A stretch of 32,000 nucleotides of DNA from Candidatus Velamenicoccus archaeovorus (GCF_004102945.1 NZ_CP019384.1:660001-692000), one strand, 5' to 3'; positions 6,314-29,250 are shown, numbered from the stretch's first letter. Numbers and translations are program-made. The notes: generated from the sequence alone by a model not told the origin.

Positions 6314-6462
6314 CCATCGGTTTGTCAAGAGCAATCCCGATTTTTTTAAAGGCAGGTCTCATGTGCGGAACTGCCACATTGTTTAGTCTCCGACAAAGGG
6401 ATAACGTGCGAATTTGCTCCAGAAAACCATGCTTCGTAGCATTATCGCACATAGACGGTTGA
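6314..6462 (+). pseudogene. decayed copy of the miaB 5-prime coding region (equivalent to miaB nt 29233-29370), starting exactly at the CC(A/T)TCGG junction motif
   Basis: Colinear short blocks shared with 29233-29368: ccNtcggNt(t)gtca, tcc(g)gatt, aa(a/g)ggc, gcggaa, (g/t)gc(t/c)ac, ccgaNaa(a/g)gg(c)gat, gtg, aatNNtg(t/c)tc, accatgc. Order is the same and small deletions accumulate (112 vs 129 nt span). Aligned by eye only. Confidence 0.3.
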
Positions 6463-6501
6463 GCCGATTCTTCGCAAAATATACCCAGATGGAAACTCGT
6501 G

Positions 6502-7095
6502 TTATACTTTCCCTGGTTCTTGAGATCCTGTTTTTTTGATATAGAGTTTTTTCATCCATCGGTCCAGGCACCACCGCGTGATGTTAAGATTTTTTGATGT
6601 TTTTTCAAGATGCCAATCGTTGCGCCTTAAGGCTTTGAAAATCAGTTCCTTGGCAACCTGGTATAAGGCCTTCCTTAAGTCAAGACCTTTAATTCTTATG
6701 TTGGTTATTTCGATATCATCAATGGCGTGCCTGATGTATTCCTTCACCTTATGGTAATCGCAGGGTTTTTCAAATACGGCATATGCTCCCAGCCGGATAA
6801 GTTCATCGCGGCTGTATTCATCGAGGTAGGCCGAGATAATGATCACGTGAATATCCGGGAATCCTTTTTTTATAAGCTGAAGGACCTCCGTTCCTGATAA
6901 TTTCGGCATCTTGATATCCAGGAGGATCAAGTCATAACATTTGTTTTTTCTGCTAAGACAAGAGATGACTTCGGAGCTATCCAGACAAATGTCTATTTCC
7001 AGATCAATCTCTGAATAGTGCTCAAGACAATGCTTGGTATCTTGGGCGAGAGTTTCATCGTCATCGACCACCAGAACTCCGTATTTAAGTTTCAT
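6502..7095 (-). CDS. response regulator, receiver domain + Fis-type HTH (no AAA+ domain)
   Basis: VLVVDDDE...DLILLDIKMPKLSG...IIISAY...VFEKP receiver motifs. C-terminal LIFKALRRNDWHLEKTSKNLNITRWCLDRWMKKL resembles a Fis/HTH_8 motif. ATG at 7095 is preceded by GGAGA. The track start at 7098 is a TTG. Confidence 0.8.
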   Translation of the reverse strand: MKLKYGVLVVDDDETLAQDTKHCLEHYSEIDLEIDICLDSSEVISCLSRKNKCYDLILLDIKMPKLSGTEVLQLIKKGFPDIHVIIISAYLDEYSRDELIRLGAYAVFEKPCDYHKVKEYIRHAIDDIEITNIRIKGLDLRKALYQVAKELIFKALRRNDWHLEKTSKNLNITRWCLDRWMKKLYIKKTGSQEPGKV

Positions 7096-7336
7096 CAAGG
7101 TTCTCCAGATTTTGATTAAAAAAATTGCTTTATCTTAAAGTGATACATAAAGTTATGCTCTATATCATCGCATCAAAGTATTTGTGGACAGCGCTTTTCT
7201 TTGACGGATATTTTATCATAACATATTCTCTAACAAGAGTTTAGCATATTTTTTGACCAATAGCAACCCTAAAAATCAAACAATTTAATGCTTAACATCT
7301 TGTAATCAAAAAGGTTATGTAAATTCAAATAAATAA

Positions 7337-7534
7337 ATGGTTAGATTGCATAATTACCTGATTTCGTTGGTCAGGGAGGGATTTTACGGTTCGGTTAAGA
7401 TAAGCTTTGAAGATGGATTGCCTGTATCCATAAGGGAGGAGAAATCCATAGACACGGCACCGTTTAAAGAGGAGATCAGGGAAGGCGTGAAGAAAGGTTT
7501 GATTAAAAAGAAAACATTCAATGAAAAAGCTTGA
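7337..7534 (+). CDS. small protein, possibly YezD/DUF2292-like
   Basis: 65 aa. FYGSVKISFEDGLPVSIREEKSID resembles the YGSV-I-V-D-V-I-EK core of YezD-family proteins. No clear SD. An overlapping antisense ORF (7325..7585) is the alternative. Confidence 0.35.
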   Translation: MVRLHNYLISLVREGFYGSVKISFEDGLPVSIREEKSIDTAPFKEEIREGVKKGLIKKKTFNEKA

Positions 7535-7558
7535 CAAGGCGGCATTATAATGTATATT
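7531..7558 (+). promoter_or_regulatory. sigma70-type promoter (TTGACA-N16-TATATT, TG immediately upstream of -10)
   Basis: TTGACA at 7531-7536 and TATATT at 7553-7558 with TG at 7551-7552. Predicted start is near 7565, about 50 nt before the hairpin at 7613. Confidence 0.45.
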
Positions 7559-7612
7559 AGATTTTAACAATTTGGTTTTCAGCAAGCAAACAGTCCTATT
7601 GGAAAAACCGAG

Positions 7613-7657
7613 GGGCTGGTTTCTGAGACGAGACTCAGGAGCCAGCCCTTTTTATTT
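7613..7657 (+). terminator. intrinsic terminator / attenuator hairpin
   Basis: 15-bp stem (7613-7627 pairs with 7634-7648, two G-U pairs), 6-nt loop ACGAGA, then TTTTTATTT. It sits only ~17 nt before the ATG at 7674. Confidence 0.65.
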
Positions 7658-7673
7658 GCCTTACGGATATCTC

Positions 7674-8084
7674 ATGGGAAAAAGTTATCATCATAACGAT
7701 GGATTTTATACAAAGATCAACAACGATCTTTTGGCCGCTCTTTACAAATGTCCGTTCAATGGAACCGAGCTTAGGCTGATTCTTGTTGTTATCCGCAGGA
7801 CCTATGGATGGAATAAGGCGAGTGCATTTATCAGCTACGGCTGTCTTGCAGATGAGCTGGGGGTTGACAAGCGTAGCATCCGCAGGTCAATGAAATTGCT
7901 CGTTCAAGACAAGGTCATTTTTAAAGAAAGCTCCTTTCGGACGAACCTGTTTTCCGTCAATAAGGATTATGCATCCTGGAGGTTATGGAAAAGTCCAGAT
8001 CCGAGGAACAAAAATGTCCCCCCCAACGGAGCAGATGAGGACAAGGCTGACCCTCAAAAGAGGGGCGAGGTTATCCTCACTTAA
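7674..8084 (+). CDS. replication protein O N-terminal-domain-like protein (phage/plasmid replication initiator family)
   Basis: GFYTKINNDLLAALYKCPFNGTELRLILVVIRRTYGWNKASAFISYGCLADELGVDKRSIRRSMKLLVQDKVI matches the pattern G-E-R-L-I-R-TYGW-K...IS...LA...G....I-R....L seen in phage_rep_O N-terminal domains. The track TTG start at 7572 would translate through the terminator hairpin. Confidence 0.6.
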   Translation: MGKSYHHNDGFYTKINNDLLAALYKCPFNGTELRLILVVIRRTYGWNKASAFISYGCLADELGVDKRSIRRSMKLLVQDKVIFKESSFRTNLFSVNKDYASWRLWKSPDPRNKNVPPNGADEDKADPQKRGEVILT

Positions 8085-8126
8085 AAGAAAGAAATAAAAA
8101 GATCTTTTAGTAGTAAAAAAAGGGCT

Positions 8127-8324
8127 GTGGATTCTGTGGAAAAGTCGACAAAGTCATACGACAAAAATTCAGTTTTTATTAAAGAAAGGTTTACCATCGG
8201 CAATGGTATTCCGCTGATCATATTTGGCGAGAGATTGTCGAAGGAACGTTTTGTTATTCTAACGATGAAAGATTTCTTTAGACTGACAAGGCTGTTGCTA
8301 AAAGGACAAAACAAAACGTCATGA
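8127..8324 (+). CDS. hypothetical small protein
   Basis: 65-aa ORF with a GTG start and a 4-nt overlap with the next ORF. No recognisable motif. Confidence 0.3.
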   Translation: MDSVEKSTKSYDKNSVFIKERFTIGNGIPLIIFGERLSKERFVILTMKDFFRLTRLLLKGQNKTS

Positions 8325-8512
8325 CAAATACCGACAATCCTCATATGGATAATAAGGACGAGGTTCTTGAGAAAAAGATCCGGCTGGATGATTCAGCATA
8401 TCGTTTTAAAAGAGTCCTTGAGATTCTACTTGAAGCCGATTTAAAGCGGTTGCAAAAATTATGCCAGGATGAAAAAGCCGAAACGTCAAGGAAATTAAAA
8501 AATATTACTTGA
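8321..8512 (+). CDS. hypothetical small helical protein
   Basis: 63-aa ORF with ATGA overlap to the upstream ORF. Charged helical composition. Confidence 0.35.
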   Translation: MTNTDNPHMDNKDEVLEKKIRLDDSAYRFKRVLEILLEADLKRLQKLCQDEKAETSRKLKNIT

Positions 8513-8537
8513 ATAACTTTGTATAATGATATATAAT
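8509..8537 (+). promoter_or_regulatory. candidate promoter of the HTH-recombinase 1 operon (TTGAAT-N17-TATAAT; also TTGTATAAT at 8519-8527)
   Basis: TTGAAT at 8509-8514 and TATAAT at 8532-8537. There is no SD before the ATG at 8546, so the mRNA may be leaderless. The word TTGTATAAT recurs before the second HTH-recombinase operon at 27341-27349. Confidence 0.35.
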
Positions 8538-8545
8538 CATTCACC

Positions 8546-8737
8546 ATGAGAAAGATAAAGGGACAAAAAGTATTTACGATAAAAGAGACGGCCGAAATTC
8601 TAGACGTCCATAGGATGACCATTTATCATTGGTTTAAAAAAGGCTGGGTTAAGGTGAAGCGTGATTATCGCAATTTTCCGGTATTTACGGAGAAAGATAT
8701 CGAGAATATCAAAAAATGGCGGAATACGCTGAGATAA
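8546..8737 (+). CDS. excisionase/MerR-type HTH protein (candidate recombination directionality factor or regulator)
   Basis: FTIKETAEILDVHRMTIYHWFKKGWVKVKRDYRNFPVFTEKDIENIKKW. Clear paralog of 27387..27593. It lies directly upstream of the recombinase. Confidence 0.75.
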   Translation: MRKIKGQKVFTIKETAEILDVHRMTIYHWFKKGWVKVKRDYRNFPVFTEKDIENIKKWRNTLR

Positions 8738-8763
8738 CCAGGCTAACCCGTGGGAATATTTAG

Positions 8764-10464
8764 ATGAAAGTTGCGATATATACCAGAGTAAGCACAGAAG
8801 ATCAGGCCCGGGAAGGTTACTCCATTGAGGTCCAACGGGAGTACCTTTTGGATCATGCCAGACGCATGGGGTGGGAGGTTTATAAGGTCTATACCGATGA
8901 CGTCAGCGGTTACGTGATTGACCGTCCAGCCTTGAACGAAATGCTCGAAGATGCTAGACAAAAGAGATTTGAACTGATTATCACCTATAAGCTTGACCGT
9001 TTCAGCAGAAAATTGAAAGATTTGCTCAATATAGTTGATGATCTGGCTGGTTACGGGGTCGCATATAAGTCGGCGACTGAGCCGTTTGATACTTCTACGA
9101 GCGCCGGGAAGCTTATGTTCCAGCAGCTCGGTAGTTTTGCAGAGTTTGAGAGGAACAGGATCAAGGAGAGAGTTTTTCCTGGGATGATCAAAGGGGTCCA
9201 GCAGGGCAATTGGCAAGGCGCGCGCTATGCTCCCTATGGATATTATTACAATAAAGAAAAGAAACTTTTGGAAGTGGTTCCTGAAGAGACGAATATTGTA
9301 AAGTTGATTTATACGATGTATCTGGCCAACAGAACCTCTGGACAAATTGCCGAATATCTCTATCTCAAAGAATATAAAACAAGATCCGGCGGTAGGTTCA
9401 ATTCGGCGCTTGTATGCAAGATACTCAAGAATCCCATATACCTTGGGAAACTGGTTTGGAATCAAAATCATTATGATACGAACCAGCGGACCCTGACGAG
9501 GAAAGGCTATCGATACGTGAGAAATGATCCTTCCAAGGTCGTGATCGCGCAAGGCAGGCATCAGCCCATAATCTGCCAGGATGATTTTGATGAAGTCCAG
9601 GCGAAATTAAGATCCAACCGAAGAGGTGTTCTGCATAGAATAAATGTCCTTGATTATCCCCTGACAGGTATACTTTATTGCGCGAAATGCGGCTATAGAT
9701 ACCAAGGAACATCTAATATGTCGAACCATCGGCTTAAGAAGAGGAAGCGCTGGTACAAATGTTCTTGCATGGGCACTTATCACGTGAGATGTTCCAACAG
9801 ACCTGTGAAAGCCGAAGATATAGAACCAAGGATTTTCGAAATAGTCCAGAAGATTTTCTCGCACAAAGATGCTGTCCAGGGGCGCCTTGAGAATTTGGTT
9901 AAGGCTAATCTTTATCTTAATAACGAAGATGTGAGAAAAGACCTGGATGGGTTGAGTGAGCAGCTTAAGCTGAATCTGGAGAAGCAGCGTAAACTTAATG
10001 ATGCCTTCATGGATAATTTTGTCGGTTCTGAACTTTATAGGGAGAAGGTGTCCGCATTGCGGGAAGAAGAGAAAAAAATCAATATGGCGATTGCCAAATG
10101 CAAGATAAAACTCGTAGAAAAGGAACGATCGGAAGCCTATCTAAAGACTCTTAAGCTGGCGATCGAAAATTTTGATGAGACCAAAGAAGAGATAGGCATT
10201 GTGGATAAAAAGGAGCTGTTGAAGCTGATATTCGAGTCCGTACATATCAATGGTGGTCAGATGGTTTCAGTCCGCTTGTACCAGCCATTTCAGCAAATGT
10301 ATGAGGAGGTGTTAAAAGAGTGCAACACATTGACGAATCAAGAGGTTACGAAAAAAATAAAGCCAAAAAGGGGAGTGTGTATATTAGAACCATCGGTTGG
10401 CCGTTGTCTACCTTATAGACACAGCATGGCGGATCTGGCGGAGGCGTTGATAGGTGCAGATTGA
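8764..10464 (+). CDS. large serine recombinase 1
   Basis: Resolvase catalytic N-terminus MKVAIYTRVSTEDQAREGYSIEVQ. Recombinase domain (ATEPFDTSTSAGKLMFQQLGSFAEFERNRIKERV, YAPYGYYY). Zinc-ribbon cysteines (YCAKCGYRY...WYKCSC...RCSN). Long coiled coil. Paralog of 27565..29250. Confidence 0.92.
   Translation: MKVAIYTRVSTEDQAREGYSIEVQREYLLDHARRMGWEVYKVYTDDVSGYVIDRPALNEMLEDARQKRFELIITYKLDRFSRKLKDLLNIVDDLAGYGVAYKSATEPFDTSTSAGKLMFQQLGSFAEFERNRIKERVFPGMIKGVQQGNWQGARYAPYGYYYNKEKKLLEVVPEETNIVKLIYTMYLANRTSGQIAEYLYLKEYKTRSGGRFNSALVCKILKNPIYLGKLVWNQNHYDTNQRTLTRKGYRYVRNDPSKVVIAQGRHQPIICQDDFDEVQAKLRSNRRGVLHRINVLDYPLTGILYCAKCGYRYQGTSNMSNHRLKKRKRWYKCSCMGTYHVRCSNRPVKAEDIEPRIFEIVQKIFSHKDAVQGRLENLVKANLYLNNEDVRKDLDGLSEQLKLNLEKQRKLNDAFMDNFVGSELYREKVSALREEEKKINMAIAKCKIKLVEKERSEAYLKTLKLAIENFDETKEEIGIVDKKELLKLIFESVHINGGQMVSVRLYQPFQQMYEEVLKECNTLTNQEVTKKIKPKRGVCILEPSVGRCLPYRHSMADLAEALIGAD
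10320..10418 (+). other. out-of-frame embedded ORF inside recombinase 1 encoding a MiaB-type N-terminus (orphan replacement 5-prime end)
   Basis: GAGGAGG at 10303-10309, GTG at 10320. Encodes (M)QHIDESRGYEKNKAKKGSVYIRTIG, then WPLSTL and a stop at 10416-10418. KAKKGSVYIRTIG aligns with KSPKKLRVLLRTFG of the miaB ORF at 29199-29240, and nt 10359-10396 align with 29199-29239. Confidence 0.45.
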
Positions 10465-10518
10465 TTAAGAAGTTATGCAAAAAAATTGAATTGGTTAAGG
10501 TAAAAACAGAATTCACTT

Positions 10519-11979
10519 ATGGCATTTGAAACTATTTTATTATGGGCTTCGGTTTTAATGTTCGTGAGCGTTGTTTCGAGCAAGATATCGGACAAGTTCG
10601 CGGTTCCCGTGTTGTTGTTATTTTTGGCGGTTGGGATGCTTGCCGGATCGGAAGGGATCGGCAATATAAATTTTGATAATGCTCAACTGGCAAAACAGAT
10701 CGGTATTTTAGCGCTTATATTTATTATCTTTTCAGGCGGGCTTGATACTAACTGGAAAGACACAAGACCAATTATTCTCCCGGGGATCGTGCTTTCGACT
10801 CTTGGAGTATTGGTTACGGCAATTATTACGGGGTTGTTTGCTGTTTATGTCCTCAAATTTTCTCTATTAGAAGGTGTGTTGCTTGGATCTATCGTTTCAT
10901 CTACAGACGCCGCCGCCGTATTCGCTATTCTAAGATCAAGACGCATAAGTTTGAAGAAGCCATTGAAACCGTTGCTCGAATTCGAGTCCGGCAGTAATGA
11001 TCCGATGGCTATTTTTCTGACAATGGGGTTTTTGAGTTTTTTGACCGTGAAAGGATCAGGGCTCGTTTTGCTGATTCCGAGATTCGTTCTGGATATGGGG
11101 ATGGGGGCGCTTGTCGGTTATTTAATGGCGAAGGCCATCGTTTTCTTTATCAAGCGGCTTAAATTAGATTATGAAGGCCTTTATCCGGTTATAACAATTT
11201 CATTGATCTTGTTTACTTACGTTATTGCAGTTCTTTTAAAGGGAAACGGGATCCTTGCGGTTTATCTTGCTGGGCTCGGTCTAGCGCAGGCGGAATTTCC
11301 TAATAAGAAATCCATTATGAAATTTCATGACGGTTTGGCTTGGATCAGCCAAATTGCCATGTTCGTGACTTTAGGTTTGCTCGTTTATCCTTCTCACTTG
11401 GTTCCGCTTATTGGAACAGGGTTGCTGGTTACGATTGTCCTCATGTTTATTGCCCGGCCTTTGAGCGTTTTTCTCTGCTTACTTCCGTTTAAATTCGCCG
11501 TGCCGAAAAAGATCATGCTTTCGTGGGTAGGATTGAGGGGCTCGGTTCCGATCATCTTGGCCACATTTCCGCTCGCGGCAGGCATTCCTCAGGCCGAGAC
11601 AATTTTTAATATCGTGTTTTTCATTGTCATTGCTTCTGTTTTTATTCAGGGCACGTCAATTCCTCTGGTTTCAAAACTGCTAAAGTTGGATGTGCCTTTG
11701 CCTGACAAGAAAGCATACCCTATAGAATTTGAGAAAGTTGAAGGCATTGACGCGGAACTGACGGATGTTATCGTGCCGTATAATTCAGAGGCTATTGGCA
11801 AGATGATCAAGGAATTGAATGTTCCGGTGAAATGCCTGATCATGCTTGTTTCGCGCAACGACAAATTTGTTATTCCGTCCGGGTCAACCGTGATCGAGGG
11901 CGGCGATGTTTTATTGGTGCTGGCAAATGCGGAAGATTTTTCTGTTTTGCAATGTGCTTTGGCACGATTAAAAGAATAA
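10519..11979 (+). CDS. K+/H+ (monovalent cation/proton) antiporter, NhaP2/CvrA-like, with C-terminal TrkA-C/RCK_C domain
   Basis: Multi-TM protein with the N-terminus typical of the family (ISDKFAVPVLLLFLAVGMLAGSEGIG). C-terminal soluble domain (AELTDVIVPYNSEAIGKMIKELNVPVKCLIMLVSRNDKFVIPSGSTVIEGGDVLLVLA) looks like TrkA-C. Confidence 0.8.
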   Translation: MAFETILLWASVLMFVSVVSSKISDKFAVPVLLLFLAVGMLAGSEGIGNINFDNAQLAKQIGILALIFIIFSGGLDTNWKDTRPIILPGIVLSTLGVLVTAIITGLFAVYVLKFSLLEGVLLGSIVSSTDAAAVFAILRSRRISLKKPLKPLLEFESGSNDPMAIFLTMGFLSFLTVKGSGLVLLIPRFVLDMGMGALVGYLMAKAIVFFIKRLKLDYEGLYPVITISLILFTYVIAVLLKGNGILAVYLAGLGLAQAEFPNKKSIMKFHDGLAWISQIAMFVTLGLLVYPSHLVPLIGTGLLVTIVLMFIARPLSVFLCLLPFKFAVPKKIMLSWVGLRGSVPIILATFPLAAGIPQAETIFNIVFFIVIASVFIQGTSIPLVSKLLKLDVPLPDKKAYPIEFEKVEGIDAELTDVIVPYNSEAIGKMIKELNVPVKCLIMLVSRNDKFVIPSGSTVIEGGDVLLVLANAEDFSVLQCALARLKE

Positions 11980-11996
11980 ATTCTTAGGAGCAAATA

Positions 11997-12668
11997 ATGC
12001 GGATATTATTAGTAGAAGATGAAATAAAAATAGCTAATTTTATTGAGCGCGGGCTGAAAGAAGAGAATTATGTTGTTGATGTGGCGACCGATGGGGAGAA
12101 AGCCATGTTTCTGGCGGAAATAAACCCGTATGATTTGATTATTCTTGATGTCATGCTTCCGCATATAGACGGGATCACTATATGCCGAGAGTTAAGAAAA
12201 AAGAAGATCAACGTGCCCATTTTAATGCTTACCGCAAAAAATCAGGTGAGGGATAAGGTTTTAGGATTAAATTCCGGAGCGGATGATTATCTTGCGAAGC
12301 CGTTTGATTTCGAAGAGCTTTCGGCTAGGATCGGAGCATTACTAAGAAGGAATAGGGATGATAAGACTGGCATTTTAAAAATTGGAGATTTAGAACTAGA
12401 CCAATTACGTCATAACGTTAAAAGAGCGGGAAAAGAAATTCAGCTCAGCAGTAAGGAATTCGCGCTTCTGGAATACCTAATGCTTAATGCCAATCATGTT
12501 GTTACCCGGACAACGATTTCTGAGCATGTCTGGCATGAGGATTTCGATAGTTTCACCAATGTTATTGATGTATTTATCAGTTTTTTACGTAATAAGATAG
12601 ATAAAGATTTTAAGAAACCGCTTATTCATACCATTCATGGTAAAGGTTACACGATAAGGGAGGAATAA
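11997..12668 (+). CDS. OmpR-family response regulator (CusR/CopR-like)
   Basis: MRILLVEDE...DLIILDVMLPHIDG...LMLTAK...DDYLAKPF receiver motifs plus a winged-helix C-terminus (LSSKEFALLEYLMLN...IHTIHGKGYTI). Confidence 0.9.
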   Translation: MRILLVEDEIKIANFIERGLKEENYVVDVATDGEKAMFLAEINPYDLIILDVMLPHIDGITICRELRKKKINVPILMLTAKNQVRDKVLGLNSGADDYLAKPFDFEELSARIGALLRRNRDDKTGILKIGDLELDQLRHNVKRAGKEIQLSSKEFALLEYLMLNANHVVTRTTISEHVWHEDFDSFTNVIDVFISFLRNKIDKDFKKPLIHTIHGKGYTIREE

Positions 12669-13726
12669 TGCGTTTCAAAACCGTTAGCTTTAAACGCAGT
12701 TTTTTATACATCATATTATTGAGTGTATTTTTAGGGGGTTATTATACTGTTCTTTTTTTGCTTCGTCCCAATTTTCGGAATATTGAAATGATTTGTTATC
12801 TTTTAATGCCTTTACCTCCGGTTTTTTTGCTGGGTTATTTAATGAGCCAGATTTCAATAGGAAAGATTATTAAACCAATCAAGGAAGTTGCCGAGGTAGC
12901 TGAGGGCATTACTCATGAGGATTTAAGCAGAAGAGTTAAGGTCGAGAATGCCGGTGAAGAGACGCAGTTTTTAGTTAAGGCTTTCAATGACATGATTTCT
13001 CGCCTTGAAGCCGCCTTTGCCTATATCACCGAATCGAGTTCGTATATTGCCCATGAGCTAAAAACGCCTCTCGCAATCATGAGAGGAGAGGCGGAAGTTG
13101 CCCTAAAAAAGGAACGGGATAAAGAAGAGTATAAGCAAGTTATTATCGGTAGCTTAGAAGAAACGCGACGGATGTTTAAGATCATTGAAGACCTCTTATT
13201 GTTGACTCGCGTCAATTATCGTTCCAACGATTTGCAGCTACAGCCTTTGGATTTAAGTCAATTTGTTATAGTGTTGTTTGAAAAGGCCAAGATTTTAGCC
13301 ACGGGAAAGAATATAGCGGTCAATGCTCAAGTTCCCGACACAACGGCGTTGGTGAATGCGGATGAACCAAATCTTCGGCGTTTATTTTTAAATCTTATTG
13401 ATAATGCTATAAAATACACGCCGCAGGATGGGAAAATAGATATTGTTGCCCATTTTGAAACTGATCGCATCAGAATTTCCATCGCTGATACCGGTATCGG
13501 CATCGAACAAGAAAACCTTCCGCGACTTTTTGATAAGTTCTTTCGGATTGGTGAGAAAATAAAAGATACTGCTCCCAGCAGTGGATTAGGGTTAAGCATC
13601 GCACAATCAATAGCAAAACTTCATCAAGGTGAAATAACGGTGTCCAGTCAAATCGGAAAAGGCACTGTTTTTACCGTAGACCTGCCTCGAATTGCCGGCG
13701 ATATCCCTCCGAATCCTCACGAATAA
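12668..13726 (+). CDS. sensor histidine kinase (two closely spaced TM helices, HAMP, HisKA, HATPase_c)
   Basis: H-box SSYIAHELKTPL, N-box LIDNAIKYT, G-boxes DTGIGI and GLGLSIA. TAATG overlap with the regulator gene. Almost no extracytoplasmic loop between the TM segments (intramembrane-sensing type). Confidence 0.9.
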   Translation: MRFKTVSFKRSFLYIILLSVFLGGYYTVLFLLRPNFRNIEMICYLLMPLPPVFLLGYLMSQISIGKIIKPIKEVAEVAEGITHEDLSRRVKVENAGEETQFLVKAFNDMISRLEAAFAYITESSSYIAHELKTPLAIMRGEAEVALKKERDKEEYKQVIIGSLEETRRMFKIIEDLLLLTRVNYRSNDLQLQPLDLSQFVIVLFEKAKILATGKNIAVNAQVPDTTALVNADEPNLRRLFLNLIDNAIKYTPQDGKIDIVAHFETDRIRISIADTGIGIEQENLPRLFDKFFRIGEKIKDTAPSSGLGLSIAQSIAKLHQGEITVSSQIGKGTVFTVDLPRIAGDIPPNPHE

Positions 13727-13896
13727 TCATTAAAAATTTTAATTATTATTTAACCTTTCGTTAATCCCCTTTTTGATACATTTGTAGCAGCTAAGGGGCT
13801 TAAAAAATATTCAACGATTTGAGATTGTTTAACATTTTCTCGCAGCCTCAATTTTACAGGGGCCAGGGGTTGCTGCTTATTAAGAGGAAATGCATC

Positions 13897-14088
13897 ATGT
13901 GTCCTTATTTTGTTGCTACAAGACCGATTGGTCATTGCGGATGTTACGGAGACGGTTTATTTCGCCCCAACATCAAACGCAAAAGACAATATTGTGTCGG
14001 TAAATTTATGAATTGCCCACTCTATCAATTACAAATGAAGTCCATTATTATCAAATCCGTGCGGGGATCAAAAAGTGATGAGGCATGA
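13897..14088 (+). CDS. MCPYF Cys-rich miniprotein, copy 1 (unknown family)
   Basis: AAGAGGA SD then ATG at 13897. MCPYFVATRPIGHCGCYGDGLFRPNIKRKRQYCVGKFMNCPLYQL. Paralog of 15554..15736, sharing M-C-P-Y-F-x8-C-x7-F-x-P-x2-K-R-x4-C-x-G-x-F-x2-C-x2-Y-Q-L. Confidence 0.55.
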   Translation: MCPYFVATRPIGHCGCYGDGLFRPNIKRKRQYCVGKFMNCPLYQLQMKSIIIKSVRGSKSDEA

Positions 14089-14750: not shown

Positions 14751-14822
14751 GAATTATTCGCAATTTTACGCTTTCCCAGCCTTACTGCTGCTTATTAAAC
14801 GAATAAAAGACGGGAATTCTAA

Positions 14823-15551: not shown

Positions 15552-15553
15552 TC

Positions 15554-22338: not shown

Positions 22339-22365
22339 TTTGCTATCGCTATAGGATAACTCGTT

Positions 22366-22977
22366 ATGGATAAAAAAAATAAACTCGACTGCGTTACGGA
22401 GTTCTGGAAAAAGTGGTCAGCGTATGAGAAGGCCTCCAGTGAGTGGGTGTTGACTATTGAAAGGCTCGGTCTTTCATCAATCGATTCCTATGATTGGCTG
22501 ACAAAAGATGATGTATTCCACAAGTATGAGAAAACGCTAAAGAAGCATAAAGTAAAAAAGCCTGACTTGGGAAATCTTTATCAGGAAGCCAATCAAGCGG
22601 CTATCCCCATTATAGAATATCTATTCGGACCGAATGAAACACCGGTTATTCCTGAGCTTCCAACGTGGCTTCCCGGAGGCTATGCTGAATGGTGTGAAAA
22701 GACGAAAGATATGCAACTTGGGATGATGCACCGCATTATGGGCGCAAGAAACAGGATAATGTCTTCTGAGTTCAAAATCAGGCCGAAATTAATCCCGCGT
22801 AGCGGCTGGTCAAGTCCGTATCCCATAACGCATTGGGCAAAGGTATTTAATATAAGCCGTAAGACCATGCAAAACTGGCTTGAGAATAATCAGTTGTTAG
22901 CCCGCAAGATCGGCAGTAAATGGCAGATCGCCGTTGAAGAGCTTCCTACCGCTGACGATCAGGATTCCTCTCAGTAA
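22366..22977 (+). CDS. hypothetical protein with C-terminal excisionase-type HTH, fourth gene of the R-M operon
   Basis: Starts 27 nt after res with no intervening terminator. The C-terminus ITHWAKVFNISRKTMQNWLENNQLLARKIGSKWQI is HTH_17-like. The N-terminal ~150 aa are unrecognised. Confidence 0.6.
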   Translation: MDKKNKLDCVTEFWKKWSAYEKASSEWVLTIERLGLSSIDSYDWLTKDDVFHKYEKTLKKHKVKKPDLGNLYQEANQAAIPIIEYLFGPNETPVIPELPTWLPGGYAEWCEKTKDMQLGMMHRIMGARNRIMSSEFKIRPKLIPRSGWSSPYPITHWAKVFNISRKTMQNWLENNQLLARKIGSKWQIAVEELPTADDQDSSQ

Positions 22978-23011
22978 CAATCCCGTACAAAAAATAGCAG
23001 TAATCCTCACT

Positions 23012-23040
23012 AAAACGCCTTAGGGCGTTTTTTCTTTTTT
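23012..23040 (+). terminator. intrinsic terminator
   Basis: AAACGCC-TTAG-GGCGTTT stem-loop followed by TTTTCTTTTTT. Confidence 0.65.
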
Positions 23041-23148
23041 AAGCACAATCATTGTAAAAATTTGGGTAATTTTGGGTAAAGCTGGGAAGGCGTGTTTTTT
23101 TCAGTGATAAACTTCAAGTAGAAAAGAAATTCGCGAGGAGGATATCAC

Positions 23149-23388
23149 ATGGAAAGTTTGTTGACCGTTGAACGGCTTATGACCCATCTCAATCTAAAGC
23201 GAAGCCAGATTGATTATCTGGTGAATAATTGGCTTATTCCGCATTTTCGGCTTCCCAACGGAGAAGTCATGTTTCGCGCCTCGGAGATCGAGATTTGGCT
23301 TTTTACCTGTAGTGTTCCCAGCAATAACCGGAAATTACGAAAAATACTTAACGAAACACGGATGTGGCGATGCAAACAGCAAGATTAG
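23149..23388 (+). CDS. AlpA/excisionase-type HTH protein
   Basis: SD GAGGAGG. LLTVERLMTHLNLKRSQIDYLVNNWLIPHFRLPNGEVMFRASEIEIWL is the typical small HTH_17 pattern that precedes primase genes in integrative elements. Confidence 0.65.
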   Translation: MESLLTVERLMTHLNLKRSQIDYLVNNWLIPHFRLPNGEVMFRASEIEIWLFTCSVPSNNRKLRKILNETRMWRCKQQD

Positions 23389-25727
23389 ATTTTAACAAGA
23401 TATCTTTAATCATTCCGGCCGAGATTAGATCTCAAAAGGCGTGGGTGGGCTACGTCACCAGACAGAACAACGGCCGAATAGATAAGATCCCGATGAACGT
23501 TATGACGGGCGCGCCTGCCAAAAGTAATAACTCGGCAACTTGGGCGGATTATGAAACCGCTGTTGACTTAGCGGTTCAGCGCAATTATGCGGGTATTGGT
23601 TTTATGTTTCAGCCGCCGTATGTGGGTGTGGATATTGACCACTGTATGAAAGATGGCGTGATCGCGCCGTATGCGTTGGATATTTTAAATGCGCTTAACT
23701 CATATTCCGAGTATTCGCCTAGCGGCACCGGCATTCATATTCTTTGTAAAGGTGAAATCGCTCGGGCCTGCAAAATTTCAAAGATCGGCCTTGAGATTTA
23801 TACCAAGGGCAGATTTTTTACCGTTACCGGCAATCGCCTTGAAAATTATCCGGCAGAAATTAACGATTGCACTGATGCACTTAAAACGATATTCAGCCGG
23901 TTTGTAGATAAAGGGCCTTCGGATGACATTTTCGCCGTAATTGCCAAGAGCCAAGACGCAGGGAAATTTCAGCGTTTATATTCAGGTCAGTGGCAGAACG
24001 ATTACCCGTCTCAAAGCGAAGCGGATCTGGCGTTGTGTAACAAACTGGCCTTTTGGACAGGCAAAGACACCGGACGTATGGATTTATTATTCCGGCAGTC
24101 GGGCCTTATGAGACCTAAGTGGGATGAAAGGCATTTTGGTGACGGTAGGACTTACGGGCAGAGCGTTATTGAGAAAGCCGTCCAAGATGCCGAAAACGTG
24201 TTTGACGCGTCAAGATCTCCAAAACAGAAGAAACTCACCCAAGGCGAAATCATCACCCGAGATTGCGAAGAAACGGTTAGCGAATATCTGCGCGACCAGC
24301 AGGGCAATCCTTACGTTGTTCTGCCGTTTGATAAACATCTTGAGATTTGTCAAACAAGCAGTTCCCGTTTCAGGAATTATTGCGCTATGCGTTACCGTGA
24401 GGATTTTGGCCATCCTCCGGGAAGCGAAGCCATAAAGCAGGCGAAAGTCCAGATAGAGGCGAAGTGTGAAGGTGGAAGGCAAGTCGAGCTTTATAACCGT
24501 GTCGGCTGGCATGACGGGGCTATTTATTATGACCTTACGACCAAAGATTGGCGCGGGGTGGTTATTACCAAAGACGGCTGGGAGGTGGTTTTCTTGCCGC
24601 CGATATTTAAGAGATATCCGCATCAGGCAGAGCAGGTTATGCCGGTCAAGGGTTGCGATCCTAAAAAGCTATTGGAGTTTTGCAATATCAGTAAGGATGA
24701 CGCTTGCCTTTTTATGACCGTGGTAGCGGCATTTTTTATTCCCGACATTCCCCATGTCATACCGGTGCAAATCGGCGAGCAGGGAACAGGCAAGTCCAAC
24801 AACTCCCGGCTCATTAAAAGTTTGTGCGATCCTTCCAAGGTGATGTCCATTTCTGTGCCTAAGGATTTAGAGCAGGCGCAGATGATCGCGGATAAACACT
24901 GGTTGAATAATTTCGACAATTTTTCTCGCGTGTCTGAGTGGTTCAGTGATTTTTTATGCCGGGCAGTAACAGGCGAGGGAGATATGAAGCGATCGCTTTA
25001 CACCAATGATGAGGAATTCATCAGGACCTATCGCCGATGTTTCGTTTTAAACGGTATCGGCAGTGCTATATGCCGTCCGGATCTATTAGACCGTTCAGTT
25101 ATCTTCGATATACCAATCTTAAAAGAGACAAGGCCGGAGAAAGTCATCGCTTACGAATGGCGGGCTTCGCTTCCCGGTATTCTCGGCGGTTTCTTTTCGG
25201 CAATTTCAAACGCAATGGCAGTTATTGACGGTGTGTCCGGGCATGAGCGTTTTAGGATGTCGGATTTCGCGCAGTGGGGTGCGGCGTTGTCACAGCATTT
25301 GGGATTCTCCCGGGAGGAATTTTTTAAGCGGTATCAGCAATCGGTTGATCATAAATGGGAGGACACCGCAGAAGAGAGCACATTCGCGCAAAAGTTGGTC
25401 TATCTTGTGGAGTCAAACGGAGGCGAGTGGGCGGGTTCTGCGACCACACTGCTTGAGAGCATTAAGCCGGAAACCGGTTTTGATAAGACGCTACCCGGCA
25501 ACGCCCGGGCACTTGGTTCAGAGCTTATGCGCATCGCTCCGGTTATGCGCAGTGTGGGCATTGATATTTTACGTCCGGAAAAGCGTGAAGCCGGTACCGG
25601 CAGGAAGCTGGTTATCTTACGCAGGATAAAGGGTAATTCGCTTTTTAAAGGCAGTGTGAACGAAGGCGTGAATGAAGGTGAACAAGGAAAGGATTTTTGT
25701 GATGAAGACGATCCAAGGCCGTATTAA
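23370..25727 (+). CDS. primase-polymerase / helicase replication protein (Prim-Pol N-terminus, PriCT-like region, P-loop NTPase)
   Basis: GIGFMF...VGVDIDHC...SPSGTGIHILCKG...GRFFTVTGN (prim-pol). SQSEADLALCNKLAFWTGKD...LFRQSGLMRPKWDE (primase C-terminal motif). Walker A GEQGTGKS. The track start 23364 is a GTG and ATG is at 23370. Confidence 0.85.
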   Translation: MQTARLDFNKISLIIPAEIRSQKAWVGYVTRQNNGRIDKIPMNVMTGAPAKSNNSATWADYETAVDLAVQRNYAGIGFMFQPPYVGVDIDHCMKDGVIAPYALDILNALNSYSEYSPSGTGIHILCKGEIARACKISKIGLEIYTKGRFFTVTGNRLENYPAEINDCTDALKTIFSRFVDKGPSDDIFAVIAKSQDAGKFQRLYSGQWQNDYPSQSEADLALCNKLAFWTGKDTGRMDLLFRQSGLMRPKWDERHFGDGRTYGQSVIEKAVQDAENVFDASRSPKQKKLTQGEIITRDCEETVSEYLRDQQGNPYVVLPFDKHLEICQTSSSRFRNYCAMRYREDFGHPPGSEAIKQAKVQIEAKCEGGRQVELYNRVGWHDGAIYYDLTTKDWRGVVITKDGWEVVFLPPIFKRYPHQAEQVMPVKGCDPKKLLEFCNISKDDACLFMTVVAAFFIPDIPHVIPVQIGEQGTGKSNNSRLIKSLCDPSKVMSISVPKDLEQAQMIADKHWLNNFDNFSRVSEWFSDFLCRAVTGEGDMKRSLYTNDEEFIRTYRRCFVLNGIGSAICRPDLLDRSVIFDIPILKETRPEKVIAYEWRASLPGILGGFFSAISNAMAVIDGVSGHERFRMSDFAQWGAALSQHLGFSREEFFKRYQQSVDHKWEDTAEESTFAQKLVYLVESNGGEWAGSATTLLESIKPETGFDKTLPGNARALGSELMRIAPVMRSVGIDILRPEKREAGTGRKLVILRRIKGNSLFKGSVNEGVNEGEQGKDFCDEDDPRPY

Positions 25728-26034
25728 AGGTGTGACCATTGTGACTGTGGACGGGCTACGTTCACAGCTTTGGTCACGGATTATCCTCATAATCTACAAG
25801 AGGATGTGGGATTCATGAATATTGTGAATGTCGTTTCTTTCCTTTTCTAAAAAAGAAAAGAGAAAGAGGGAAAGCCCCTTGTAGGGGGTCATTAGAGGCA
25901 GTTAGAAAAATAAGGGTAGTCAATGTTCACAACGTTCAGAGGGTAGAAAAAGGGGAGGTGAAAGATGTAGGCAAACGTAAAAACCAAGGCAGAAGAATAG
26001 TAATTCAAATCAACAAATACAGGAGGAACGAAAA
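25728..26034. other. candidate replication origin / operator region downstream of the primase-helicase gene
   Basis: Inverted repeat GTGACCATTGTGAC (25732-25745) and GTTCACAGCTTTGGTCAC (25760-25777). Further TGTGAA/GTTCACA words at 25823-25828 and 25925-25931. AT-rich palindrome CTTTCCTTTTCT-AAAAA-AGAAAAGAGAAAG at about 25838-25866. Confidence 0.35.
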
Positions 26035-26718
26035 ATGAAACTGAATTTTTTAAACGTGTTAAAGGGCAAAAGCACGCCGGAAGAGATCGCCGAGCAGATT
26101 GTGGCGCTTGAAGAAAAGCAGAAGCTCTGCGAGCAGGAAAAAACTGAAGCTAAAGAGAAAGCAAAAGAAATCAGAAGCCGGGTTATGTGCGGCGAGAGGA
26201 TTAATCCCGAGGCTGTGAAGCTAGCGGATTTGGCGTTGGAGGAATGCAATATCAATCTCGATGTCGTTGCCGAGAGCCTCGCTAAACTCAAGACGAAAAT
26301 GGAGGAAGCGTTGACGGAGAAGCGGGACGAAGAGATGAAAAGGCTCATCGAAGACCGTAAAGCCATGAACAGAGAGAAGGAGACGTTGATCCTCGATCTG
26401 TGGAAGGCGAAGGGCCGGTTGTTTGCCTTAGCATTTGCTATCTACGGTCATCCAGAGACTACCCGACGGCATTTGGAAGATTACCCCGCGTTTAGCCCCA
26501 GTTTAGGAACAGAGCCGCACAGTATTTTTCATGCTGAGAAAGAAAAGGGTATCGCCGAGCTTCGCAGGCCGACAACGGCAGATATCGAGGAGGATATCCG
26601 TGTCAGGGATCACTGGGTATCGCATTTCGACCTCGAGCAGGAGATTAATAACCTTATGAAAAAATATCGGCCTGAGCCCGCAAAGCCAGTGGAGCAGGTA
26701 GAGTTGGTTGCTGAGTAA
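26035..26718 (+). CDS. hypothetical coiled-coil protein
   Basis: SD AGGAGGA. 227 aa. The Glu/Lys-rich helical N-terminal half has no recognisable catalytic motif. Confidence 0.6.
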   Translation: MKLNFLNVLKGKSTPEEIAEQIVALEEKQKLCEQEKTEAKEKAKEIRSRVMCGERINPEAVKLADLALEECNINLDVVAESLAKLKTKMEEALTEKRDEEMKRLIEDRKAMNREKETLILDLWKAKGRLFALAFAIYGHPETTRRHLEDYPAFSPSLGTEPHSIFHAEKEKGIAELRRPTTADIEEDIRVRDHWVSHFDLEQEINNLMKKYRPEPAKPVEQVELVAE

Positions 26719-26839
26719 CAATCTAATGCGGAGGAACCGGATCGATGTTCTTGTTAACTTCTTCCATCGCGAAAGTTTTGCCAGATAAATGCGTCTGGCA
26801 GAGGGCGACACCTTCCGCCCTCCTCCGCACGCATTTTGT

Positions 26840-27130
26840 TTACGGGTCCTTGGCAGCCGGTGTCGGGTGAGGGTCGGGCGAGGCGCAGTTTGTCAGTGAT
26901 CTAAAATTTTGAAAAAGTGATGTCATGTCATATGGGGTTATCCGGAGAGCGTCAAAATGTGGTCAGGAAGGCTCAAAACAGGCATTTTTTGCGGAAAAAG
27001 TGTCAATTTTTGGGTATTTCGATGGTTTTGAGGGGTGTTTTGACTGACATTCACTGACACGAGTTATGTCAGTATGTCAGTGAAACCGGACATCATACGA
27101 CACGAAAAATGTCCTAATGTCCTAATGGGT
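26840..27130. repeat. noncoding module, copy 2
   Basis: GGGTCCTTGG (26844-26853), the identical 23-mer (26865-26887), CAGTGAT (26894-26900), ATGTCATGTCAT (26920-26931), GAGCGTC (26947-26953), AGGGGTGTTTT (27031-27041). Copy-specific words: ACTGACA(T/C) x2 facing ATGTCAGT x2 (27043-27081), and ATGTCCTAATGTCCTAATG (27109-27127). Confidence 0.8.
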
Positions 27131-27140
27131 AGCGGTGAAA

Positions 27141-27338
27141 ATGAGCAAGGATGTACGCACAAATAATGATCAGGCGGTTAGCCTTAGGGGCTGGGATGCT
27201 TTAGAGATAAAGCTAAAAGGCCGCGGCCTATCCAGCATTGAGATTCAGGAGGCGCGTAAATCCTTTTTTGAAGGCATTGAGTTGTTGTCAAAAATGTTCC
27301 TGTCCTCGTATGACGCGGAGAAGAAAACCCTTGTATAG
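27141..27338 (+). CDS. hypothetical small protein
   Basis: ATG at 27141 (the track start 27135 is a GTG). 65 aa, helical, no motif recognised. Confidence 0.4.
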   Translation: MSKDVRTNNDQAVSLRGWDALEIKLKGRGLSSIEIQEARKSFFEGIELLSKMFLSSYDAEKKTLV

Positions 27339-27386
27339 GGTTGTATAATACGGTATACTGGGCACTAATCTTAGAGGGTGCCAATT

Positions 27387-27593
27387 ATGAAAACTTACAC
27401 CATGACAGAGACGGCAAAAAAGCTGGGTGTTCACCGGCAGACCATGATCAATTGGATCCGCAAGGGTTGGGTTAAGCCCAAGCGCGACTACAAAGACTGG
27501 CCCGTGTTTACGGACGAGTGTATCGCCAAGATTAAAGAATGGCGGGAGACACTAAAGGATACTAATGAGGGTAGCGTTATACACAAGAGTTAG
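27387..27593 (+). CDS. excisionase/MerR-type HTH protein, paralog of 8546..8737
   Basis: SD AGAGGG then ATG at 27387. YTMTETAKKLGVHRQTMINWIRKGWVKPKRDYKDWPVFTDECIAKIKEW. It overlaps the recombinase start by 29 nt. Confidence 0.75.
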   Translation: MKTYTMTETAKKLGVHRQTMINWIRKGWVKPKRDYKDWPVFTDECIAKIKEWRETLKDTNEGSVIHKS

Positions 27594-29250
27594 CACAGAG
27601 GATCAAGCTCGCGAAGGATTTTCGCTGGAGGTGCAGAGAACGTATCTTTTGCAATATGCGAAGAACTTCGGCTGGGATGTTTTTTGCAGTATGTCGGGCC
27701 GGGATGTTTATATGGATGACGGCTATTCCGGCGGCAATATGGATAGACCGGCATTACAGAGGCTTCTCTTCGATGCCCGCAATAAGCAGTTTGATTTGGT
27801 CTTGGTGTATAAACAAGATCGCTTAAGTCGTCGGCTCAAGGATCTGTTAGGATTGCTTGAGGAGATTGATTCTTTGGGTGTTGGCTATAAATCAGCGACT
27901 GAGCCGTTTGATACTACATCGAGCGCGGGCAAAATGGCGATTCAAATGCTTGGCAGTTGCGCGGAATTTGAGCGTAATCGTTTAGTTGAGCGCGTTTTTC
28001 CGGGTATGGTTGTAGGTGTTAAGCGGGGGCATTGGCAGGGAGCGCGTTACGCGCCGTATGGCTATCGTTATAATAAGGAAGCCAAGAAACTGGAAGTCCA
28101 CCCTGAAGAAGCGAAAATCGTCAAAGAAATTTTCTCGATGTATATAAATGGCAAGAGCACTTCGCAGATTGCCGGGCATTATTACATGCTTGGTATCCCT
28201 TCGCGGCAGGGCGGGAAGTTTTATACTAAATTCATCTCGGATATCCTTAAAAATAAAGTGTATTTGGGAATGCTGGTCTGGAATAAGCGGCGTTACGATA
28301 CAAAGATCAAGACTAAAAATGGCGAGGGAAAGGGATATTGCTATATCAAGAATGATCCTTCCAAGATCATCGAGGTCCCGAATACGCACGAGCCGATTAT
28401 TTCGCAAAGGGAGTTTGACGAGGCTTCCACGCTTCTCAAGCGAAACCGCACTAATGGCATAGTTAGATTCAGGAATAATGTTTATCATCTTTCCGGTATA
28501 TTAAAATGCAATGAATGCGGCGGTAATTATCGCGGGATGACGCATATCGTTAATCACCGCACCAAAATGAGGCGTCCGTGGTATAGATGTTCGTCTAGAG
28601 GGATTCGGTATATTAAGTGCAACAATAAATCCGTGACTGCTGATGCTATCAATAAGCAGGTCTGGGATATCGTTGAAGTTATTAGAAAAAATCTTCACGT
28701 GCTGGAAGAATTAGGCGACATGATTCGGCTTAACGCTTCTGAGCCGGAGCGGGTATATATGGAGCAGTTGGAGGAGAAGGAAGCGCTTCTTAAAAAGAAC
28801 GTGGAGAAGCAAAGGGCTATATACGAATTATTTTCAGAAGACAAAATAAATATGGGGCTTTATAAGGACAGAGCCGAGCTTTTAAGTAATGAGGAGAAAA
28901 AACTAAAGCAGGATATCAAGGCCATTCATCTTAAGATTCTGGACAAGCGCAATTCCGTCAATTTGGTGAAAGCGACGCAGGATTTCCTTTTAAGGTTGCG
29001 CAGTACGCCCGAAAGCGACAATCACCAATTGGACTACCTTATAAAGACGTTCATGCGGATTGTCTTTAAGTCGATTACTATCCAGAATCAGGAAATCGTG
29101 AAGTTTGAGTTGAATGAGCCTTGGAAGACTTGCTATGAAGAGGGGATGAAATGGTTGAAAACGAACGAAAAGACGACAATACAGGCGATTCCGGAGGCAA
29201 AAGCCCGAAGAAGCTACGTGTGCTTTTGCGCACCTTCGGATGTCAGATGA
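27565..29250 (+). CDS. large serine recombinase 2
   Basis: MRVALYTRVSTEDQAREGFSLEVQ. ATEPFDTTSSAGKMAIQMLGSCAEFERNRLVERV. YAPYGYRY. Zinc-ribbon CNECGGNY...WYRCSS...KCNN. Coiled coil. The last 100 nt overlap the miaB ORF in another frame. Confidence 0.92.
   Translation: MRVALYTRVSTEDQAREGFSLEVQRTYLLQYAKNFGWDVFCSMSGRDVYMDDGYSGGNMDRPALQRLLFDARNKQFDLVLVYKQDRLSRRLKDLLGLLEEIDSLGVGYKSATEPFDTTSSAGKMAIQMLGSCAEFERNRLVERVFPGMVVGVKRGHWQGARYAPYGYRYNKEAKKLEVHPEEAKIVKEIFSMYINGKSTSQIAGHYYMLGIPSRQGGKFYTKFISDILKNKVYLGMLVWNKRRYDTKIKTKNGEGKGYCYIKNDPSKIIEVPNTHEPIISQREFDEASTLLKRNRTNGIVRFRNNVYHLSGILKCNECGGNYRGMTHIVNHRTKMRRPWYRCSSRGIRYIKCNNKSVTADAINKQVWDIVEVIRKNLHVLEELGDMIRLNASEPERVYMEQLEEKEALLKKNVEKQRAIYELFSEDKINMGLYKDRAELLSNEEKKLKQDIKAIHLKILDKRNSVNLVKATQDFLLRLRSTPESDNHQLDYLIKTFMRIVFKSITIQNQEIVKFELNEPWKTCYEEGMKWLKTNEKTTIQAIPEAKARRSYVCFCAPSDVR

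Follow-up and report, generated by a model that had tools for sequence, protein, structure and literature searches.

A composite island at the 5' end of miaB in an uncultured Omnitrophota genome, very probably built by tandem accretion of two serine recombinase elements

The locus described here raises the question of how two site-specific recombinase genes came to lie in front of an intact miaB gene, and by which steps the DNA around them was put together. The window, which is the whole stretch of 32,000 nucleotides analysed, comes from an uncultured member of the Omnitrophota near Candidatus Velamenicoccus archaeovorus, judged by the host flanks. Its MiaB protein shows 93% identity to a protein in a Ca. 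Velamenicoccus archaeovorus metagenome-assembled genome (MAG), and a metagenome-assembled contig from it (L002; handles of this kind denote the contigs and loci compared) aligns with window 302-7792 at 96.8% and with 29232-32000 at 94.3%. The initial annotation read the region as two large serine recombinase (LSR) elements stacked in tandem at one miaB site. This arrangement is supported by relatives that carry a single element, by a block of DNA that travels between hosts and by a contrast in G+C content (GC). We consider it very probable that positions 6323-29242 are a composite island formed by tandem accretion of two integrative elements at the miaB 5' end. GC is 0.585 in a giant gene (1-5353), 0.479 in the gene for a 313-residue protein and 0.534 to the right of 29243, from miaB onward. 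It is 0.409 in element 1 and 0.426 in element 2 overall, with 0.402 in the cargo, 0.412 in the restriction-modification slot and 0.461 in the core of the latter. The computed GC thus differs between segments rather than being uniform, and the expected 23 kb of AT-richer DNA is found as values of 0.41-0.46 over about 6300-29240.

Three junctions, all on the plus strand, hold the arrangement together. The motif CC(A/T)TCGG is present at each of them, as CCATCGG at 6314 and 10390 and as CCTTCGG at 29233. These positions had been proposed as the junctions. The motif stands, but the crossover does not fall on its first base; the true core lies 8-9 nucleotides (nt) rightward. We place the cores at the TG dinucleotides 6323-6324, 10398-10399 and 29241-29242, because TG is the only sequence common to all junction partners. 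In a comparison of attachment (att) sites from more than 30 loci, including attL, attR, hybrid and free-form junctions, the partners agree in TG alone. This TG makes up bases 1-2 of the Cys codon in the GCQMN motif of MiaB. The sites are in direct orientation at one target, with element arms (P, P') and host arms (B, B') arranged as P'1 at TG 6323, P1/P'2 at TG 10398 and P2/B' at TG 29241. Core copy 1 (attL1) follows the left host arm of element 1, the nominal B arm, at 6240-6322 (read directly), and leads into the P'1 arm TCAAGAGCAATCCCGATTTTTTTAAA, whose assignment comes from its conservation. Core copy 2 is a hybrid, P1-TG-P'2, the former attR1 and now the attL of element 2. Core copy 3 (attR2) is set by the limits of host and element homology; host homology to L002, L005, L008 and L010 begins at 29232 and element homology to L013-L018 ends at 29253-29268. 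Taken together, the alignments demonstrate the junction positions.

Both P arms encode a MiaB-like N-terminus in the miaB frame, as was noticed initially. The translation of P1 upstream of motif copy 2 is VQHIDESRGYEKNKAKKGSVYIRTIG, and that of P2 upstream of motif copy 3 is MVENERKDDNTGDSGGKSPKKLRVLLRTFG. Three database MiaB proteins (P0002, P0008 and P0017) begin MQHIDESGGYGKNTVKKGSVYIRTIGCQMN, the product of an arm of element-1 type joined to miaB, so the resemblance is not a matter of chance. The P1 arm (10320-10418, plus strand, translated by eye) now contains an orphaned open reading frame (ORF) for the substitute N-terminus, VQHIDES...VYIRTIG, which continues as WPLSTL up to a stop; its final 29 nt are identical among the window, L005 and L008. 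The P2 arm (29151-29240, plus strand) is read in a frame different from that of the LSR2 C-terminus, and is nearly identical in L013-L018, where it stands ahead of divergent miaB genes. The window miaB (29151-30398, plus strand; MiaB homologues from 93% identity downward) is chimeric, with codons 1-30 from element 2 and the remainder from the host, and is presumably expressed in this form. Native MiaB N-termini of island-free genomes read MIRKNVYIKTYGCQMN (L004) and MLKVFLQTYGCQMN (L010). The native B arm of L004, AATGTTTATATCAAGACCTACGGC, is closely similar to P1, AGTGTGTATATTAGAACCATCGGT.

The ends of element 2 (18,843 bp) follow from comparison with other contigs. Window 8366-10399 corresponds to L005 7434-9467 and window 29232-32000 to L005 9457-12216; in L008, window 8108-10399 corresponds to 7735-10023 and the part from 29232 onward to 10013 onward. 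The segments abut with an 11-bp overlap in both contigs, and window 10400-29231 is therefore extra. The comparison with single-element genomes, named earlier as a check, thus yields element-1-only relatives in which P1 adjoins miaB. Homology to L005 and L008 stops at 10399, and identity to L093-L098 begins exactly at core copy 2. These six contigs, which differ in source, were fetched among 150 blocks of a public collection that hold the exact sequence of a 223-residue cargo regulator, and they match window 10388-18186 at 98-99.6% identity. Their identity starts at TGGCCGTTGTCTACC (window 10398), read also as TGGCCGTTGTC, behind different left flanks: an intact native miaB start, ATG...MKQDKKSIFIETYG, in L097, another native start (KVLLKTYG) in L098, a third MiaB-like start in L095 and L096, and the P arm of a different, 620-residue LSR in L093 and L094. 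By these alignments the left end of element 2 is defined to the base. At the right end, L013-L018 carry LSRs 86-100% identical to LSR2 and a P arm nearly identical to ...CCTTCGG(A/C), then TG, followed by miaB genes with products 38-48% identical to the window MiaB. In L013 (Omnitrophica UBA6249; contig DJVT01000009.1) the LSR is 100% identical to LSR2, and the MiaB is 48% identical to that of the window. The comparison demonstrates mobility of element 2 between distant hosts. L093 and L094 have a further feature at 6606-8523 in each contig. A different miaB-type element, with primase/D5 helicase, GIY-YIG, helix-turn-helix (HTH) and 620-residue LSR genes, is followed by its P arm, TG, P'2 and the same cargo, and reads as a second, independent tandem array.

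Each element ends in a rightward LSR gene behind an HTH gene. LSR1 (8764-10464) and LSR2 (27565-29250), both on the plus strand, share 43% identity over the full length and have the Pfam domains Resolvase, Recombinase and Zn_ribbon_recom, for LSR2 by way of an identical protein. The resolvase catalytic domain PF00239 scores 2.5e-38 in LSR1 and is listed for LSR2; PF07508 (recombinase) and PF13408 (zinc ribbon) are in both. Both proteins start M(K/R)VA(I/L)YTRVSTEDQ, which holds the Y-x-R-V-S-T-x-x-Q motif with the nucleophilic Ser, and both are predicted to be catalytically competent. By sequence, the solved structures nearest to them are that of the TP901-1 integrase catalytic domain (2e-29) and that of SPbeta SprA/YokA (about 4e-17), with the latter match covering residues 55-454. 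The best matches in phage genomes are Streptococcus and Lactococcus phage integrases at about 30% identity, the lactococcal ones being TP901-1-like. In an exact-protein look-up, LSR2 leads to the 1.8-kb contig L001 only and LSR1 is without a record. The HTH genes at 8546-8737 and 27378-27593 (plus strand) are 55% identical, which bears out the proposed paralogy, and show weak matches to excisionase PHROGs (about 1e-5 each). Their products are candidate directionality factors. Both LSR ORFs run through the crossover, and the C-terminal tail is set by DNA beyond the core. Where an LSR is joined to miaB, its ORF stops three codons on, in a conserved ATGAA; LSR2 ends ...PSDVR, and the proteins of L005 and L008 end ...PSVVK (EPSVVK). 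In the window, the last 22 codons of LSR1 come from the P'2 arm of element 2; this foreign tail reads ...PSVGRCLPYRHSMADLAEALIGAD and ends ...EPSVGRCLPYRHSMADLAEALIGAD. The LSR ORF of the free-form-like locus L108 is 581 residues long, with about 20 extra residues.

The use of miaB as a target is common to a whole clade of LSRs. An alignment of five LSRs against a genome collection gives 80 loci. Of these, 44 have an LSR with 40% identity or more to LSR2, and at about 35 of the 44 the 3' end of the LSR gene is where a tblastn match to MiaB sets in, from the G of GCQMN. The rest are mostly contigs whose sequence runs out at the LSR or shortly after it, and L045 gives no clear picture. The miaB-adjoining loci belong to Omnitrophota, Elusimicrobia, WOR-1 and MAGs labelled Planctomycetia; at the more distant LSR loci, which come from Actinomycetota, Bacillota and archaea, the LSR is in no case followed by miaB at its 3' end. 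Every P arm reads ...(R/K/I/E/A/V)T(F/Y)G ahead of TG. The P arms of about 30 loci encode substitute MiaB N-termini, and the 5' end of the target gene is replaced by the element. These natural junctions demonstrate that the LSR clade is specific for miaB. In L032, L034 and L038 the whole element, 10-11.3 kb long, can be read together with an intact native B arm at attL. L108 (IMGVR_UViG_3300029286_003022), a phage-like contig with a T7 gp14-like internal virion protein and a tyrosine-integrase-like ORF, has at 9710-11455 an LSR 81% identical to LSR2, then the same P arm and TG, then DNA other than miaB. This is what a free attP would look like, and a phage apparently makes use of this integration module too.

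Element 1 is much smaller (4,075 bp). In relatives it is made up of a regulator, a 65-residue ORF, a RepO-like gene, an HTH gene and a 547-residue LSR. The response regulator with a Fis-type HTH (6502-7098, minus strand; Pfam Response_reg 1.2e-19, HTH_8 weak) accompanies element-1-type LSRs in L002, L005, L008 and L030. The replication-initiator-like protein (7572-8084, plus strand) has a winged helix of phage RepO type (Pfam Phage_rep_O 1.1e-17; PHROG replication initiation O-like). Element 1 occurs without element 2 in L005, L008, L009, L099, L100 and L103; P1 is joined straight to miaB in L005, L008/L009 and L099, and the sequences of L100 and L103 end at the junction. A giant gene and a gene for about 290 residues lie on one side of it and miaB on the other. 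The P'1 arm, TG-TCAAGAG(C/T)(A/G)ATCCCGATTTTTTTAAA, is conserved in L002, L005, L008, L102 and L103 and is recognisable in L030, a distant host with about 50% identical MiaB. Alignments with more divergent relatives resume at 6321-6322, on the element side. The host arm 6240-6322 is unalignable with L008, L102 and L103, though both sides of the arm align; its final codons TCC ATC GGT resemble ACC ATC GGT of P1. In L101 (1285-5627), the 313-residue gene is 90% identical, similarity to the window ends at the stop of this gene (6237-6240) and unrelated genes come next. The left edge of element 1 is therefore a synteny breakpoint of the clade. The attL of the element-1-type element in L030 (130-160) reads ...CTGTTTTTGAAAACC-TG-TCAAGAT. 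The flank resembles a native VFLKT start without the Tyr-Gly codons, suggesting that 6 bp were lost once the element had integrated or that this LSR subtype has another crossover position.

The RepO-like gene also contains a pattern that imitates a MiaB start and att site, VVIRRTYGW at 7785-7811, which we judge a coincidence. A fourth att-like site at this place (VVIRRTYG plus TG at 7809) is rejected. All five RepO homologues in the alignment have TYGW as a conserved motif, and the breakpoint of L002 and L102 (7792) lies 17 nt off and not at TG.

The following steps would lead to the present island. The 3' end of the LSR gene overlaps the P arm of attP, whose second frame encodes a start codon followed by a MiaB-like N-terminus that ends in ...RT(F/I)G. 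Crossing over at TG would then swap the native first 10-20 codons for the substitute and leave miaB intact, because the P arm supplies the start and N-terminus up to the TG in the Cys codon. The new attR (P-TG-B') still resembles attB and would be usable again. Element 1 was resident first, and element 2 then entered attR1, giving P1-TG-P'2 at 10398 and P2-TG-B' at 29241. Recombination by LSR2 between attP2 (P2-TG-P'2) and attR1 (P1-TG-B') accounts for every junction. We propose that LSR2 accepts attR1 because P1 mimics the miaB 5' end normally bound by LSR2. The reconstructed attP2 junction is GCGCACCTTCGGA-TG-GCCGTTGTCTACC. The predicted restored attR1 is TTAGAACCATCGGT-TG-TCAGATGAACGTCC, the predicted attP1 is TTAGAACCATCGGT-TG-TCAAGAGCAATCCC and the predicted B-TG-P'2 junction is TTTTCCATCGGTT-TG-GCCGTTGTC. 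The three excision products suggested initially (element 1, element 2 or both together) are extrapolations from this scheme, and excision at present would be a prediction from the site arrangement. Excision of element 2 alone is the best-supported product, as it would reverse sites that LSR2 demonstrably used. Loss of element 1 alone would need LSR1 to accept P'2 in place of B', and joint excision would need a P2/P'1 hybrid synapse between proteins that are 43% identical.

Several observations weigh against this picture. The attP2 junction has no exact match among viral contigs, and neither an excision product nor a circular form is seen. Reconstructed attP1 and attP2 give 4/30 and 10/30 dyad matches versus 7.5 +/- 2.3 for random sequence, which is not significant. 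Pfam domains of relaxases, coupling proteins and type IV secretion are not found among main-frame ORFs of at least 130 residues plus six shorter ones. Read directly, the host arm left of element 1 cannot be recognised as a miaB start. When metagenomes are scanned with the 313-residue protein, 9 loci are obtained, and no empty [313-residue gene]-miaB site of the clade is among them. Every locus that is long enough carries element 1, apart from L101, L105 and L106, in which the DNA after the 313-residue gene is unrelated among them or to the miaB surroundings; L104 extends for only about 730 bp downstream of the gene. The native B arm of the lineage is not recovered because none of the 313-residue loci is empty. 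The earlier judgement that the left arm is no convincing miaB start and that this boundary is the weakest part of the model agrees with these results; the arm is degenerate and has an in-frame TAG at 6299-6301. Element 1 could be immobile here, with its left limit set solely by P'1 conservation.

One alternative is thus that element 1 is a fixed, vertically inherited remnant or domesticated cassette which gives miaB its start and offers a landing pad, only element 2 being mobile. It would explain why element 1 is in every relative with the shared giant-gene/313-residue-gene synteny (L002, L005, L008, L099-L103) with no empty site found, and why the host arm to its left is degenerate and hypervariable; with the arrival of element 2, moreover, P'2 took the place of the B' half-site of attR1. 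LSR1, however, is intact and under strong purifying selection, with a ratio of nonsynonymous to synonymous divergence (dN/dS) of 0.06 versus the L005 and L008 orthologues. Its dS of 1.3-1.4 (1.4 versus L005) is far above that of a host gene in the flank, which is 0.24 in the comparison with L005. The left half of element 1 is also present in L002 (96.8%) and L102 (85.9%), and in both the similarity breaks off at the same point within the RepO-like gene (window 7792; L002 7491, L102 9381). To the right of this breakpoint they carry another module, whose LSR has 45-50% identity to LSR1, which argues for recent exchange of modules. The P arm of L002 encodes MPTRGNSSSSEKKKRVLYIRTFG. Deletion between stacked elements of partial homology would leave mosaics of this kind. 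The element-1-type regulator, LSR and P'1 also occur in hosts with MiaB only about 50% identical (L030, L031). Selection, high dS and module exchange together suggest that element 1 is no dead relic, and we regard the fixed-cassette explanation as possible, though rather unlikely.

Other histories find less room. Had element 2 entered native miaB first and element 1 later used its attL (B-TG-P'2), the final arrangement would be the same, and an attL of element 2 with native B arms does exist elsewhere (L097, L098). This reverse order is nevertheless highly improbable, as there are relatives with element 1 alone and P1-TG-B' intact, and no relative with this synteny has element 2 by itself. Copies of element 2 in unrelated hosts match it at 99% identity, pointing to a recent arrival, whereas element 1 diverges about with the host or faster. 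The comparison of relatives thereby demonstrates the order of arrival. The cargo looks cellular (antiporter, two-component system), and the island-free L004 has at 1-442 a 66% identical (amino acids) Na+/H+ exchanger 10 kb upstream of an unoccupied miaB. The region could accordingly be one 23-kb island with a redundant internal recombinase, or 10.5-17.8 kb could be trapped ancestral host DNA, host synteny of 10519-17800 having been named earlier as an objection. Against this, the block starts exactly at TG in the six contigs, with five unrelated left flanks ahead of it and an identity of 98-99.6% among the copies; L013 links window 16759-18186 to the LSR2 module in a different host, and no synteny of the cargo with the island-free L004 or L010 is found beyond the exchanger of L004. 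Already contradicted in this way, the explanation is scarcely credible. Equally hard to credit is an assembly chimera in which populations with element 1 and element 2 were joined through similar P arms. The source is evidently a metagenome, and the P arms have CC(A/T)TCGG in common and are similar around it. The junction identity, though, extends over only about 7-9 nt, too short for mis-joining, and two contigs of separate origin (L093 from JGI, L094 from Logan) hold the independent tandem of the same kind.

Beyond tandem accretion itself, a wider and quite speculative idea, which we think improbable, is that the miaB-specific LSR/attP module is a shared, exchangeable cassette of phages (L108), primase islands of 10-19 kb and mini-replicons of 4 kb, in use throughout Omnitrophota and in neighbouring phyla. 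The locus might then act as a self-renewing landing pad, because every integration would regenerate an attB-like site, and would permit module swapping as in L002 and L102. The state-dependent LSR tail could serve as a sensor that biases integration versus excision.

Some known systems resemble this arrangement in part. The serine-integrase prophages A118 (comK), SPbeta (spsM) and skin (sigK) disrupt their genes, which excision restores. They too combine an LSR with a small directionality factor, use simple att sites whose core is 2 bp long and have their target within coding sequence, whereas miaB here is intact while occupied. To our knowledge, almost no mobile genetic elements have been described in Omnitrophota. 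Tandem accretion is known from the ICESt1/ICESt3-CIME model and from tandems of integrative and conjugative elements (ICE) and integrative and mobilizable elements (IME) in streptococci (PMC5704250). These share with the present island the directly repeated att sites and the composite structure, and, as the review describes for tandems of functional elements, same-specificity integrases that are only distantly related. They differ in using mostly tyrosine integrases and the 3' ends of tRNA or protein genes, and in being conjugative or mobilizable. The window elements have LSRs, a 5' end target and an Omnitrophota host, and transfer genes are not detected in their scanned ORFs. Known serine-recombinase IMEs disrupt their targets, according to the same review (PMC5704250). 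Staphylococcal chromosome cassette (SCC) composite islands at rlmH (SCCmec with ACME, COMER and defence cassettes; PMC11470126, PMC7029739) are also LSR cassettes stacked at an intact housekeeping gene; they carry defence or adaptive cargo, and their units can in principle leave singly or together. Their recombinases, however, are CcrAB/CcrC at the 3' end of rlmH in staphylococci, and a single Ccr often serves several stacked cassettes. In the window the two elements encode separate LSRs, 43% identical, and differ in the P' arm, and the target is the miaB 5' end in Omnitrophota hosts. Integration inside the 5' end of a tRNA-modification gene, with the element giving a new 5' end, is shared with the dusA islands and prophages (PMC4482086), and few tRNA-modification genes are known as integration targets (PMC4482086). 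The dusA integrases are tyrosine recombinases; in the window the recombinases are serine enzymes and the target is miaB, and the DNA for the substitute N-terminus overlaps, in another frame, that for the C-terminus of the recombinase itself.

The principle of gene-restoring integration and of stacking at a regenerated att site is established. Gene-preserving 5'-end integration by LSRs is a less familiar combination, since dusA islands use tyrosine integrases and known serine IMEs disrupt their targets. Full-text literature searches return no paper that links miaB with large serine recombinases. The window offers a clean, base-resolved case of tandem accretion by serine integrases. The LSR clade to which they belong is large and keeps to a single conserved target, the TG in the Cys codon of GCQMN. 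The att arms are readable from dozens of natural attL, attR and attP examples, which should be useful for integrase choice and landing-site prediction. Transfer among Omnitrophota with MiaB less than 50% identical is very recent, with a 7.8-kb block at 99% identity and a swappable restriction-modification slot.

This block makes up the left part of element 2. The cargo at 10519-17782 (plus strand, Pfam) combines ion transport and signalling: a Na+/H+ exchanger with TrkA-C, an OmpR-type regulator, a histidine kinase, a PhoU-like protein, receiver-domain proteins, a DUF5698/DUF2179 protein, a P-II-like protein and a GreA/Rnk-like protein. A 72% identical (nt) Na+/H+ exchanger/TrkA-C gene is present at L034 6657-7915, inside a differently bounded miaB element of 10.35 kb. 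The defence slot (18186-22352) holds a type III restriction-modification pair, Mod and Res, at 18449-22338 (plus strand; PADLOC MTase_III 3e-85, REase_III 2e-18), and other restriction-modification genes in L013, L093, L095, L097 and L098. Its contents elsewhere are DpnI and DUF1016 (L093/L094), Dam-type and N6/N4 methylases (L095/L097), or Dcm, Vsr and RadC (L098). A LexA/S24-like gene stands ahead of the slot in several copies, and not in the window. The maintenance module (22366-25727, plus strand) has a 203-residue HTH protein (Pfam HTH_17) and a 787-residue primase-polymerase-type protein (Pfam NrS1-1_pol-like_HBD; PHROG DNA primase 3e-84), and is conserved in L013, L015, L017, L020, L023 and L093. 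The right-hand order is HTH, primase-polymerase-type protein, unknown ORFs, Xis-like HTH and LSR2. This core module is less conserved (91-95%) than the cargo, and the cargo block may be spreading between related elements. Capsid, portal, terminase and tail genes are not found among the window ORFs by Pfam and PHROGs, so the island does not have the make-up of a prophage.

Rfam and tRNA scans find no RNA genes in the window. The giant gene at its left end is an ORF at 20-5353 for a repetitive, surface-type protein of 1,777 residues with a faint Big_1 match. In relatives the giant surface-type protein exceeds 3,000 residues, with 3,180 in L002 and 3,203 in L008. Very long proteins are reportedly a feature of the Velamenicoccus lineage, and the ORF at 20-5353 fits with this.

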